DNA of 60,536 nucleotides, counting the filler, from Pseudomonadota bacterium (GTDB lineage: Bacteria > Pseudomonadota > Alphaproteobacteria > Paracaedibacterales > CAIOTO01): assembly GCA_040387495.1 (NCBI GenBank). It is 4 parts of 4 records of this genome, joined end to end, with 100 filler letters (N's around TTAATTAATTAA, not from the genome) between each part and the next. Parts side by side here need not be neighbours in the genome. Positions count along the whole stretch, not along the records: positions 41,794 to 59,199 come from JAZKDQ010000006.1; 3 more parts are not named here. One strand, written 5' to 3'. Each line of letters starts with the position of its first letter. The stretch's first letter is position 1. The translations under genes were made by a program, and so were the position numbers. Under the pieces are notes generated by a model. It made no database searches. It had not been told where the DNA came from and was given only the letters and a program-made list of their open reading frames with translations. Positions 24,805 to 59,299 of the stretch are shown one piece after another.

Positions 24805-25811
24805 CTGACATATCACCAAATAGTGAACAAATAGTTAATGAGACTGAAGAGAAATCTCCAGAAGAGACTGTTGAAGAAGAGAAATCTCAAGAACTAACTG
24901 AAGAAGAACCAGCTGACGAAAAGTCAGATGATGCTGCTGATGACGAAAAATCAGATGATGCTGCTAATGACGAAAAATCCGATGATGCTACTGATGACGA
25001 AAAATCCGATGATGCTGCTGATGACGAAAAGTCAGATGATGCTGCTGATGAAGAAAAATCAGATGATGCTACTGATGACGAAAAGTCAGATGATGCTGCT
25101 GATGGTGATGAAAAATCAGATGATGCTGCTAATGACGAAAAATCCGATGATGCTACTGATGACGAAAAGTCAGATGGTGCTACTGATGAAGAAAAGTCAG
25201 ATGATGCTACTGATGACGAAAAGTCAGATGATGCTACTGATGACGAAAAGTCAGATGATGCTGCTGATGAAGAAAAGTCAGATGATGCTGCTGATGAAGA
25301 AAAGTCAGATGATGCTACTGATGACGAAAAGTCAGATGATGCCGCTGATGAAGAAAAATCCGATAATGCCGCTGATGAAGAAAAATCCGATGATGCAGCT
25401 GATGAAGAAAAATCCGATGATGCAGNNNNNNNNNNNNNNNNNNNNNNNNNNNNNNNNNNNNNNNNNNNNTTAATTAATTAANNNNNNNNNNNNNNNNNNN
25501 NNNNNNNNNNNNNNNNNNNNNNNNNTGCTGAAGAACCTGCTGCTGAAGAGCCTGCTGCTGAAGAACCTGCTGCTGAAGAATCTGCTGCTGAAGAATCTGC
25601 TGCTGAAGAATCTGCTGCTGAAGAGCCCAAGGAAGAAGCGAAAGCAGAGGAACCTAAGGAAGAGGCGAAAGCTGAAGAACCTGCTGCTGAAAAGAAAAAA
25701 GCTAAGGAAAAAATAGAAAAGCCAAAAGCAAAGCAAACGGCAAAGCAAAAAGAAAAATTAACGCAAAAAAAGAAATCTGAAACGAAAAAAGAAGTTGTAC
25801 CAGCTGAGTAA
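24804..25811 (+). repeat. Acidic low-complexity coding repeats (27-bp DDEKSDDAA units; 15-bp EE[P/S]AA units; Lys-rich end), spanning a gap
   Basis: Open frame ADISPNSEQIVNETEEK...(DDEKSDDAA)n to the gap; after the gap (EEPAA)n...KKEVVPAE* at 25809-25811. Confidence 0.8.
25426..25525. other. Artificial contig linker
   Basis: N-run with central TTAATTAATTAA. Confidence 0.98.
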
Positions 25812-41693: not shown

Positions 41694-41793
41694 NNNNNNN
41701 NNNNNNNNNNNNNNNNNNNNNNNNNNNNNNNNNNNNNTTAATTAATTAANNNNNNNNNNNNNNNNNNNNNNNNNNNNNNNNNNNNNNNNNNNN
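41694..41793. other. Artificial contig linker
   Basis: N-run with TTAATTAATTAA. Confidence 0.98.
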
Positions 41794-43745: not shown

Positions 43746-44975
43746 ATGAAAATTCTTGATGCACAATTAGCAAAAACATTAAACGGCAAACGCGTTCTTG
43801 TGCGCGTTGATTGGAATGTTCCTTGCCAGGATGGGGCGATAACGGATACAACACGTCTTATCAATACGCGAGAAACGTTGGGGCTATTACGAACCCACGG
43901 TGCGAAGGTCATTATTCTTGCACATTTCGGCAGGCCTACCCTTGCAAAAAAAGCATTCAAAGACCCTAAAGCCACCACTGACTTACGCATTGCTGAAGAT
44001 GCATTTTCGTTTAAGCCTTTACTTGCCGAAATACAAAAGGCACTAGGTTTCATTCTTGATTTTTGTGAAGATCCTTTATCAGCAGAGGGTTTTGATCAGA
44101 TTTATGAAATGCGAAATGGTGAAGTTATGTTGTGCGAGAATATTCGTTTCTTTGGCGCGGAGGAGGAAAATAACAACATGTTTGCAATCGCACTTTCTGC
44201 GTGCGCAGACATATATATAAACGAAGCCTTTTCTTGCAGCCATCGTGCCCATGCATCGGTAGAAGCCATCACTCGCCAATTACCATCATATGCGGGCATT
44301 GCTCTTGCTCGTGAAGTTTCATATCTTAATGACGCCTTTGTGAAACCAAAACGTCCTTTATGGGTTATTGTTGGTGGTTCCAAAGTATCAACAAAAATCG
44401 ATCTATTGTTAAATCTATCACGCCACGTGGACGGGCTGATTATTGCCGGCGCTATGGCAAATACATTTTTCAAAGCAAAAGGCATTAGTGTTGGAAAATC
44501 CTTAGTGGAAGACGATTACATTGAAACTGCACGCGCTATCCTGAACGCCGCAACAGCTGAGATTGTTTTGCCCTATGATCGCCTTGCTGTTGAAGAGCTA
44601 TCTTTTACCGAAAAGATGGATGTCATATCCGTTGATTTTGATAAAGTACCTGATACCCATTCCGTCTTTGATATTGGCGAGAAATCACGCGCATTATTCA
44701 TTGAAAAATTACAAGGTGCCCAAACAATTATTTGGAATGGTCCTGTCGGCATGTTTGAACATGACGCATTTGCGGGTGGCAGCAATGCGATTGCGCGTGC
44801 ACTAGCGGATGCAACACAAAAAGGCGTGCTGACATTAGCTGGCGGCGGCGATACGCTAGCTGCACTTGCCAAAGCTGGGGTTGTGGATAAATTGTCATAC
44901 TGTTCCACAGCGGGCGGAGCATTTTTAGAATGCTTGGAAGGCAAAATATTACCTGGGATTGCAGCACTTGGATAA
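43746..44975 (+). CDS. pgk: Phosphoglycerate kinase
   Basis: VRVDWNVP, HRAHAS, GGSKVSTK, WNGPVG, STAGGA. Confidence 0.97.
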   Translation: MKILDAQLAKTLNGKRVLVRVDWNVPCQDGAITDTTRLINTRETLGLLRTHGAKVIILAHFGRPTLAKKAFKDPKATTDLRIAEDAFSFKPLLAEIQKALGFILDFCEDPLSAEGFDQIYEMRNGEVMLCENIRFFGAEEENNNMFAIALSACADIYINEAFSCSHRAHASVEAITRQLPSYAGIALAREVSYLNDAFVKPKRPLWVIVGGSKVSTKIDLLLNLSRHVDGLIIAGAMANTFFKAKGISVGKSLVEDDYIETARAILNAATAEIVLPYDRLAVEELSFTEKMDVISVDFDKVPDTHSVFDIGEKSRALFIEKLQGAQTIIWNGPVGMFEHDAFAGGSNAIARALADATQKGVLTLAGGGDTLAALAKAGVVDKLSYCSTAGGAFLECLEGKILPGIAALG

Positions 44976-45246
44976 TAATTCTCTTGTGTTCCCTTCATTA
45001 AAAGTCATCAATGAAATATGTTTTAAGAAACAAGGCCGCTTTCTGTTATGCCAAATAAACCAAACGCATCTCAGGCCTTGCAATGAGAAACAAGTTGACT
45101 ACTTAAGAATCAATAGCTATATATCATGGCTGTATGAATGAAAATCATAGTTTACATAATGGGTAAAATTAAAGATTTCACATCTTGAACCATTATTTTT
45201 ATTCAACATTTATTTAAAATTTAGAATCCTTAGATAGGTAGTAATA

Positions 45247-45762
45247 GTGAAAGAAAAGACTATATGGGGCATCATTTTTTTGACCCTTTCTGGCTGTACT
45301 TCAATGCAGACTGAACCACAAAAAAACACCATGGAGCTTATTCCACTAACACCGCAAACAAAATATTTAGTACCAAAAAGTAAAGAGGCACTTGGCAGAC
45401 AAGTTGTGCTTGACCTTTATGATTGTCAAACAACGCATCTTGATGATCTTGCTTGGGTAGAAGCAACAATGCAGGAAGCTGCGCGCCGTGCAAAAGGAAC
45501 AATCGTTAAATCTGTTTTTCATAAATTTTCTCCGTGGGGAATTTCCGGAGTAGTTGTCATTTCAGAGTCGCATCTTGCTATTCATATTTGGCCAGAATAT
45601 CGCTATGCAGCCATTGATATTTTTACATGCAGTGAAGACTTAGGTTTAAAAGCTGCTGCAGATTACTTAATAGAACAGTTTCAAAGTAAAAAACCGATAT
45701 ACGGTGGCCTGATACGTGGCACAAAAGCGCAACAACACAGCGGGTTAGGACTAAAACAATAA
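45247..45762 (+). CDS. speD: Pyruvoyl-dependent AdoMet decarboxylase family (SpeD/SpeH class 1B) proenzyme with lipoprotein-type signal
   Basis: GISGVVVISESHLAIHIWPEYRYAAIDIFTC; N-terminus MKEKTIWGIIFLTLSG-C. Confidence 0.85.
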   Translation: MKEKTIWGIIFLTLSGCTSMQTEPQKNTMELIPLTPQTKYLVPKSKEALGRQVVLDLYDCQTTHLDDLAWVEATMQEAARRAKGTIVKSVFHKFSPWGISGVVVISESHLAIHIWPEYRYAAIDIFTCSEDLGLKAAADYLIEQFQSKKPIYGGLIRGTKAQQHSGLGLKQ

Positions 45763-45772
45763 AAGTGAAATT

Positions 45773-45859
45773 GATAAGTTATTTTATGATCACCGAAAAC
45801 GGAATGTTTGTGCAATGTTTGGAAGGCAAATATTATCTGGGATTGCAGCACTTGCATGA
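45773..45859 (+). repeat. Decayed direct duplicate of pgk 3' end (44886-44975)
   Basis: TGTTTGGAAGGCAAA-TATTATCTGGGATTGCAGCACTTGCATGA versus TGCTTGGAAGGCAAAATATTACCTGGGATTGCAGCACTTGGATAA. Confidence 0.9.
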
Positions 45860-45926
45860 TGTATGTCATTTTAACATAAGCATTCACACAACAATAAGCT
45901 GACACATTAGAACCTGGAAAACAAAA

Positions 45927-46316: not shown

Positions 46317-46766
46317 CTAACGATCGATAATCGACGTCCAGAAATTTTCAAACACGCGTAATGTTTTGCCAAAAGCATCTAAATCAATAGATGTACCCAA
46401 TTGCTTTGAAAACAATTGTGTTTGCTTTGCCAACGCCTGATCGATCTTTCCATAGAGCTCAGTGCCCTTTGGTGTCAATTTCACATGGCTTGATCTACGG
46501 TCATGCGCTGAAGGAACCTGATTCACATATCCATTTTTTACCATCTTACGAAGGTTATAAGACACGTTTGAACCAAGATAATATCCACGATTGGTTAACT
46601 CGCCAACAGTTAGTTGACTATTTTTACCAATATTGTATAAGATTAACGCTTGTACGTTTGTTATATCAAGCTTTTCTTGTCGATCAAGTTCACCTTTAAC
46701 AACCTCCAAAAATAGACGATGTAAACGTTCAATCATTACAACAACATCAAAATAGGATTCTTTCAT
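46317..46766 (-). CDS. ldtR: MarR-family regulator, LdtR-like
   Basis: IERLHR, QALILYNIG, RGYYLGSNVSYNL, DRRS. Confidence 0.8.
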   Translation of the reverse strand: MKESYFDVVVMIERLHRLFLEVVKGELDRQEKLDITNVQALILYNIGKNSQLTVGELTNRGYYLGSNVSYNLRKMVKNGYVNQVPSAHDRRSSHVKLTPKGTELYGKIDQALAKQTQLFSKQLGTSIDLDAFGKTLRVFENFWTSIIDR

Positions 46767-59199: not shown

Positions 59200-59299
59200 N
59201 NNNNNNNNNNNNNNNNNNNNNNNNNNNNNNNNNNNNNNNNNNNTTAATTAATTAANNNNNNNNNNNNNNNNNNNNNNNNNNNNNNNNNNNNNNNNNNNN
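59200..59299. other. Artificial contig linker
   Basis: N-run with TTAATTAATTAA. Confidence 0.98.

Follow-up and report, generated by a model that had tools for sequence, protein, structure and literature searches.

A predicted lipoprotein of the S-adenosylmethionine decarboxylase family in an alphaproteobacterium with no detectable SAM synthetase or spermidine synthase gene

The stretch of DNA analysed here (the window, 60,536 nucleotides in full) was taken from the genome assembly GCA_040387495.1 of an alphaproteobacterium (Paracaedibacterales; CAIOTO01). On its plus strand, at 45247..45762, it carries a gene for a predicted 171-amino-acid lipoprotein precursor of a class 1b enzyme of the S-adenosylmethionine decarboxylase (AdoMetDC) family. 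Considered as a whole, the data are best explained by a lipid-tethered AdoMetDC that would work outside the cytoplasm on S-adenosylmethionine (SAM) derived from a host, a reading to which we assign a probability of about 0.5. To our knowledge, AdoMetDC has been treated as a strictly cytoplasmic enzyme whose sole role is to supply spermidine synthase. What appears distinctive in the present case is a putative lipoprotein AdoMetDC in an alphaproteobacterial symbiont that seems to encode neither the synthesis of its substrate nor the use of its product. An intact family member with conserved export signals in a bacterium apparently unable to make the substrate or use the product suggests that host metabolites are the target and that the reaction takes place beyond the bacterial cytoplasm.

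The open reading frame (ORF) was intact and comprised 171 codons, with a GTG start and an in-frame TAG three codons upstream of it. Its product matched the Pfam family PF02675 (AdoMet_dc) over residues 53–150 with 120.2 bits (cut-off 25) and the NCBIfam equivalog model TIGR03330 with 127.6 bits (cut-off 75.65). The chains 1tlu and 1vr7 of the Thermotoga maritima AdoMetDC, TM0655 (PDB 1TLU and 1VR7; class 1b SpeD/SpeH), aligned to it with E values of ~1e-29, and in the 1tlu alignment residues 47–149 of the query corresponded to residues 2–104 of the chain. Since residue 2 of the T. maritima chain sits at query residue 47, the protein has about 45 extra residues at its N-terminus, which the original prediction had described as a lipobox followed by a linker; a lipobox (L14-S15-G16-C17) does precede the matched region. 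The catalytic AdoMetDC fold was assigned to residues 47–160 (45385..45726, plus strand) in an AlphaFold2 model built on an alignment of 82 homologs, where the predicted local distance difference test score (pLDDT) was 87–99 for residues 41–160. When this model was submitted to Foldseek, it matched 1tlu_A with an E value of 1.2e-14, a template-modelling (TM) score of 0.92 (target-normalised), a root-mean-square deviation of 1.4 Å over 115 columns and 46% identity.

Both catalytic motifs that had been noticed in the sequence were found intact. The SESH motif (S106-E107-S108-H109) lies at 45562..45573, and its E107-S108 pair aligns with E62-S63 of T. maritima in a column that is invariant in the 82 homologs; self-cleavage is predicted to occur between E107 and S108, turning S108 into the pyruvoyl group. 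His113 (45583..45585), likewise invariant in the 82 homologs, is the counterpart of T. maritima H68, and Cys128, the last residue of the DIFTC motif (D124-C128, 45616..45630), is the counterpart of C83. According to Li et al. (2023; PMC10407285), S63 is the pyruvoyl precursor of the T. maritima enzyme, while H68 and C83 are needed for processing and catalysis. The two proteins are alike in fold, in the ES/SH site, in the His and the Cys and in the size of the domain. They differ in that the core domain of the window protein is preceded by 45 extra residues (the predicted lipoprotein signal and tether), whereas the T. maritima enzyme starts with that domain, in that the catalytic Cys is followed by Gly in T. 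maritima but by Ser in the window protein, and in that the genome studied here has no spermidine synthase partner.

Pattern matching, shuffling and comparison with the closest homolog, P0002, led us to predict a type II signal peptide in residues 1–16, followed by a Cys17 to be lipidated (45247..45297, plus strand). Residues 1–17 (MKEKTIWGIIFLTLSGC) contain K2 and K4, an uncharged and mostly hydrophobic stretch at positions 5–14 and then the lipobox, so that the signal can be divided into the regions MKEK, TIWGIIFLT and LSG-C17, with predicted cleavage before Cys17 (MKEKTIWGIIFLTLSG being removed and C becoming the first residue). The pattern applied was [LVI][ASTVI][GAS]C with a basic n-region and the Cys at position 15–35, which we take to be that of PROSITE PS51257. 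Only 361 of 200,000 shuffles of residues 2–45 (0.18%) gave the lipobox pattern, and it occurred in 35 of the 1278 long ORFs of the genome, which is a normal share of lipoproteins. Lipoboxes of the same kind (...LLSGCSG and ...MLTGC among others) are present in the genome's own clear lipoproteins. Residues 18–46 (45298..45384, plus strand), which lie outside the match to T. maritima, may serve as a linker or tether, as the AlphaFold2 model contained no secondary structure before residue 50 and the mean pLDDT for residues 1–40 was 57–66. The genome also encodes the processing machinery, Lgt (250.8 bits), LspA (126.9 bits) and LolA (46.8 bits) all scoring above their cut-offs.

Export signals were also found in the nearest homologs. 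P0002 (78% identity, 169 amino acids) begins with MIIKYLIISFCSVLFSG-C and carries the lipobox LFSG-C. Conservation of the lipobox, which had been proposed as a check of the original prediction, held for this protein and not for the seven other members of the clade (P0003, P0004, P0013, P0015, P0121, P0272 and P0273), which have Sec-type signal peptides instead. These seven are 47–60% identical to the window protein and 65–76% identical to P0004, and their signals end in an A-x-A-like site, after which a P-[DE]-x-L...V stretch is conserved. Altogether, the clade consists of nine clusters, in which the catalytic residues and the export signals are kept at 47–78% identity. When 83 core domains were placed in a quick maximum-likelihood tree, the seven members of the clade that it contained fell on one starred branch with a Shimodaira–Hasegawa-like approximate likelihood ratio test (SH-aLRT) value of 95; P0272 and P0273, found after the tree had been built, were left out of it. 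P0129, a long-branched protein of 126 amino acids with a hydrophobic start, grouped with the clade. When a clade profile made from six members was searched against 1.84 billion representatives, 6404 family members were recovered, of which only two clusters matched across the N-terminus (266.6 and 260.1 bits), the next best match scoring 181.3 bits.

The loci of relatives gave a different picture. The 105 loci collected came from GTDB species genomes (25) and from JGI metagenomes (80); the former all contained betaproteobacterial or other cytoplasmic forms, and no clade member was present among the latter. Among the AdoMetDC ORFs of these nearest cytoplasmic relatives that had room for an extension, none of the 56 carried a signal peptide. 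A hydrophobic stretch was seen in L025 alone, where it lies 156 residues upstream of the motif and looks like part of the preceding gene. The exported, membrane-tethered enzyme that had been proposed is thus supported, as far as sequence comparison goes, by signal peptides throughout the clade, by their lack in the 56 ORFs of cytoplasmic relatives and by the presence of Lgt, LspA and LolA, and we consider export and lipidation of the protein probable.

Signals of this kind may have arisen more than once. Among 383 fetched homologs bearing the motif, a sample biased by the choice of queries, 15 look exported; the exported-looking proteins comprise ten sequences in nine 90% clusters of the clade and seven others when P0184 and P0143 are counted. 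Those outside the clade (P0143, P0184, P0221, P0275, P0287, P0288 and P0299) have N-termini resembling signal peptides or lipoboxes (...LLLSTAC in P0143). Since P0143, P0184 and P0221 were placed apart from the clade in the tree, the sequences suggest that export signals were gained repeatedly in the AdoMetDC family.

The metabolic setting of the gene is unusual. No spermidine synthase gene adjoins it, as had been stated beforehand, and none was detected anywhere in the genome either, neither by PF01564 (0 matches) nor by tblastn with 15 spermidine synthase parts. Such an aminopropyltransferase partner characterises the pathway rather than the protein family. Searches of the genome with PF02773 (the SAM synthetase MetK) and with PF02784 (pyridoxal-phosphate-dependent ornithine, arginine or diaminopimelate decarboxylases) likewise found nothing. 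MetK was present in 20 of 41 genomes, namely 40 relatives from the order and the genome studied (G000). Within this set, PF02773 was absent from G000 and its four nearest congeners (G001, G002, G003 and G006) and present in G004 and G005. An AdoMetDC homolog was found in only six of the 41 genomes, G000 included, and the other five have a SpeD of another type (AESH) that lacks a signal peptide and, in G001, G003, G029 and G030, adjoins a spermidine synthase gene. Because G001 and G003 keep the speD–speE pair although MetK was not found in them, they presumably make spermidine from imported SAM. The absence of this pair from G000 and the insertion of the gene described below suggest that the genome, lacking the canonical cytoplasmic pair of some congeners, has gained in its place an enzyme from a different subfamily that is predicted to be exported. 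The speDE region of G003 has only one gene in common with contig C18 of G000.

Genes related to polyamine uptake were also detected. A PotG-like ATPase scored 419.3 bits with TIGR01187 (cut-off 355.6), and a gene for a PotF-like binding protein, whose score of 319 bits is under the cut-off of its own model, lies nearby. Both are situated at about 6.8–11.7 kb of contig C17 (L136), near a gene of the CADD family (TIGR04305), and no permease genes were identified there among the scanned ORFs of at least 150 amino acids.

As regards the substrate, we would put the odds on SAM at about even. Comparison with 41 SpeDs that are either linked to a spermidine synthase or fused with one showed 36 columns conserved to at least 85%, and in 33 of them the window protein agrees with the consensus; the 18 columns conserved to 100% were all kept in the seven clade members tested. 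Li et al. (2023; PMC10407285) state that one Pro of the central region is kept by all bona fide AdoMetDCs, while the arginine decarboxylases derived from them have lost it. Both central-region prolines (P96 and P116) were present in the seven tested clade members and in all 41 SpeE-linked SpeDs. The nearest proteins outside the clade are SpeDs of speD–speE operons from soil Betaproteobacteria and Casimicrobiaceae metagenome-assembled genomes, with 53–63% identity. They have the motifs HIWPE and FHKF.PWGISGVVVI in common with the window protein but no hydrophobic N-terminus, and their catalytic Cys is followed by Gly. Of the 105 loci, 32 have a spermidine synthase gene adjoining the AdoMetDC gene; L025 and L032 are among them, and their betaproteobacterial SpeDs are 53–60% identical to the window protein. 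At L024, from a Casimicrobiaceae relative, the surrounding genes resemble those of phosphodiesterases, phytases and an FtsX-type permease.

In the mechanism that we propose, translation would start at the GTG and the Sec system would export the unfolded chain, after which Lgt and LspA would lipidate the precursor and cut it between L-S-G and C17. Because Thr occupies the +2 position and LolA is encoded, the mature lipoprotein would probably be sorted to the outer membrane; the +2 sorting rule comes from Escherichia coli, and this lineage may not follow it. A disordered tether, about 29 residues long, would then hold the catalytic domain outside the cytoplasm, where the domain would fold and cleave itself between E107 and S108. 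Most likely, the enzyme would decarboxylate host SAM that arrives in the periplasm or at the cell surface, the host being the necessary source because the bacterium has no recognisable SAM synthetase. Since the bacterium lacks both MetK and an aminopropyltransferase, the product could be useful only via host synthases or as a drain on SAM. In the first case, decarboxylated SAM would probably be used by the spermidine and spermine synthases of the host, and the resulting polyamines would be imported by the PotG/PotF-like system; in the second, the purpose would be simply to drain the SAM of the host. The polyamine-scavenging role, which we infer from this gene content, is put forward tentatively. 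It is also conceivable, with no greater confidence, that the symbiont outsources spermidine synthesis, the AdoMetDC in the envelope making the aminopropyl donor that the host uses and the PotF/PotG importer taking the harvest. Supplied with decarboxylated SAM as the limiting aminopropyl donor, the spermidine and spermine synthases of the host would be driven forward, and the AdoMetDC would act as a metabolic effector, rewiring the polyamine and SAM pools of the host from outside the bacterial cytoplasm.

In the literature searched, judged by titles and the beginnings of abstracts, no published description of an exported AdoMetDC was found, and the earlier statement that no example had been described holds to that extent. 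If the reading is true, an extracytoplasmic enzyme would be added to the known set of pyruvoyl enzymes, and intracellular bacteria would have a new way to tap or manipulate the SAM and polyamine pools of their hosts. A parallel in organisation is a system that Li and co-workers reportedly described in Biochem J in 2019, in which orphan cytoplasmic AdoMetDCs are said to occur beside a membrane-bound fusion of MFS and spermidine-synthase-like parts. There, too, a functional AdoMetDC reportedly lacks a polyamine-making partner and is linked to the membrane, while the activity of the window protein is a prediction; in contrast to that system, the present genome has no PF01564 domain, and the export signal is on the AdoMetDC itself.

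Several points weigh against a tethered enzyme acting on host SAM. We infer the host and the intracellular lifestyle from gene content, and the use of decarboxylated SAM by the host is speculation. We know of no use for decarboxylated SAM in the absence of an aminopropyltransferase, and a periplasmic AdoMetDC would be expected to compete with the bacterium's own uptake of SAM. The genome encodes two DsbA-like proteins, and PMC10407285 notes that the Cys in the active site of AdoMetDC is prone to modification and inactivation; for these two reasons an oxidising periplasm may be hostile to the enzyme. Two substitutions occur throughout the clade, A84G and G129S (Cys in one member), and the latter, a clade-specific replacement of Gly by Ser129, stands directly after the catalytic Cys128; they could mean an altered specificity. 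Furthermore, the absence of SpeE and of canonical ornithine decarboxylase (ODC) and arginine decarboxylase (ADC) from a genome with a SpeD, a combination found here as well, was the criterion that revealed arginine and ornithine decarboxylases among the SpeDs described in that paper. The start codon is the last of these points, since the NCBI and ENA gene calls begin at Met20 (152 amino acids) or Met29 (143 amino acids), only the Logan call uses the GTG, and translation of P0002 may itself begin at a downstream GTG.

The alternative that survives best is that the protein is exported but has changed its substrate, being a periplasmic pyruvoyl decarboxylase of arginine, ornithine or lysine. It would form agmatine, putrescine or cadaverine from host amino acids in the vicinity of a PotF-type protein, or it would consume protons in acid defence. 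This must be taken seriously because the combination of a SpeD with the lack of SpeE and of canonical ADC and ODC has repeatedly led to arginine and ornithine decarboxylases (PMC10407285), and the present genome fits that pattern. The arginine decarboxylase (SpeDA) and ornithine decarboxylase (SpeDC) forms of Li et al. (2023) resemble the window gene in this respect and also in their spread by horizontal transfer. The derivatives decarboxylating arginine are, moreover, described in the same paper as "relatively little diverged" from true AdoMetDC, and a putrescine-type importer as well as the substitutions G129S, beside the catalytic Cys, and A84G would suit a new substrate. Nevertheless, the protein passes the AdoMetDC equivalog model, it shares 53–60% identity with SpeDs of speD–speE operons, and it has lost neither of the two central-region prolines, one of which distinguishes bona fide AdoMetDCs from the arginine decarboxylases; the model and the prolines set it apart from SpeDA and SpeDC. 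The ornithine decarboxylase group, for which four residues (Gln, Thr, Phe and Tyr) are diagnostic, is by the same account (PMC10407285) the most diverged from AdoMetDC. The paper mentions no export signals for SpeDA or SpeDC, whereas the window protein has a predicted lipoprotein signal, and it places those genes in polyamine gene clusters, while the window gene lies between pgk and bolA. No linked polyamine gene was found at this locus, HSS, SpeY, AguA/AguB and CASDH/CASDC not having been searched genome-wide. The sole arginase-family gene of the genome scored 170.8 bits as arginase and 106.2 bits as agmatinase, both below the cut-offs, and adjoins an ornithine aminotransferase gene, which also argues against a switch of substrate. 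On balance, we regard a changed substrate as rather unlikely.

The arginase-like gene is located on contig C8 at about 1.7–3.8 kb (L127), next to the gene for the ornithine-oxo-acid transaminase, and the two look like a pair for arginine catabolism rather than an agmatinase locus. An agmatinase had been considered as a hint of arginine decarboxylase activity, and this was rejected because the gene scores higher as an arginase and is paired with the aminotransferase gene.

A second alternative is that the extension is not translated. The protein would then start at Met20 or Met29 as an ordinary cytoplasmic orphan AdoMetDC, and the lipobox would be a chance product of the 5′ leader. The five public gene calls in the 90% cluster of the protein (P0001 and P0268–P0271) are 171, 152, 152, 143 and 143 amino acids long, that is, four of the five use one of the internal methionines, and GTG is a minority start codon, occurring in 7 of 57 entries of a loose lipobox list. 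The sequence around the starts argues otherwise. A Shine-Dalgarno-like AGGT (45236..45239, plus strand) stands seven bases before the GTG, similarly to the clear lipoprotein genes of the genome, which have AGG or GGAG 6–10 nucleotides before the start, and no such motif precedes Met20 (45304) or Met29 (45331), so that among the three candidate starts this feature is confined to the GTG. A downstream Met start together with homologs lacking the lipobox had been named as what would speak against the original prediction; P0002 instead has an open frame, an ATG at the position aligned to the GTG and the lipobox, and it has Val at the positions of both Met20 and Met29. Seven more clade members carry signal peptides, the lipobox pattern is rarely produced by the shuffles, and even the Met29 start would leave an 18-residue extension unexplained, because the core domain begins at residue 47. 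Consequently, an untranslated extension is considered improbable. The practical meaning of a GTG start is that the public annotations of 152 and 143 amino acids conceal the signal peptide because their starts were set at internal methionines.

The genome, 1.66 Mb in size and 99.92% complete, carries the studied gene on contig C6, and window positions are obtained by subtracting 135597 from the C6 position. The window is made up of pieces of four contigs (C2, C5, C6 and C15) separated by N spacers at 25426–25525, 41694–41793 and 59200–59299, therefore gene neighbourhoods cannot be read across these joints. On C6, the gene is flanked by pgk on the upstream side and bolA on the downstream side. 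In G006 and G001, which belong to the same genus, the order sod, membrane protein, pgk, bolA, marR and rluA is conserved, and pgk and bolA are separated by 136 nucleotides versus about 950 nucleotides here, where the spacing encloses the AdoMetDC gene. The functional 3′-end of pgk (44915..44976, plus strand), taken as the reference copy, is repeated after the gene as a decayed direct duplicate at 45800..45860 (plus strand), a scar of the insertion that closes the inserted segment. The duplicate appeared as two repeat families with a spacing of 884–885 nucleotides and identities of 91% and 77%, it was supported when the pgk ends of G006 and G001 were aligned with it, and one contig of DNA run X2 placed its pgk end on the 45800..45860 copy. 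Because this decayed copy lies directly after the gene and the congeners have the 136-nucleotide spacing, the AdoMetDC gene is, on comparative evidence, a single-gene insertion of about 885 nucleotides, which either carried a functional pgk end with it or preserved the existing one, leaving a fossil copy behind.

The upstream part of the inserted segment (44976..45246, plus strand) contains no ORF of note. A sigma-70 scan of the segment gave no promoter above the shuffled background, and the sole CtrA box in 44976..45246, at 45203–45217 with one mismatch, is not above chance, 91 such one-mismatch sites being observed in the window against 85.5 expected. Contigs from four DNA runs were short and otherwise identical to the window, with two variants only: those of run X5 differ at 45330 (T for C) and 45354 (T for G), which fall on the third base of codons 28 and 36 and, by codon reading, leave the amino acids unchanged. 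Among the five public calls, P0001 and P0269 have Ala at the position of Gly133 (G133A). The idea that the gene is a recently inserted passenger without function here, unexpressed or catalytically irrelevant, draws on the lineage-specific insertion with its recombination scar, on the failure of the sigma-70 and CtrA-box scans to identify a promoter and on the missing partner enzymes, but it is very improbable, as the frame is intact with every invariant family residue kept, the same protein occurs in several assemblies with only G133A in two of the five public calls and the two silent changes, the nine-cluster clade keeps catalytic residues and export signals, and the G+C content of the gene (39.9%) equals that of the genome (39.3%).

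A further observation concerns the MarR-family protein encoded at 46317–46766 of the window on the minus strand. Its amino acid sequence is 100% identical across G000, G006 and G001, whereas the adjoining genes have diverged among these three genomes (86–87% for pgk and 70–74% for bolA). This invariance could reflect either recent recombination or very strong constraint.

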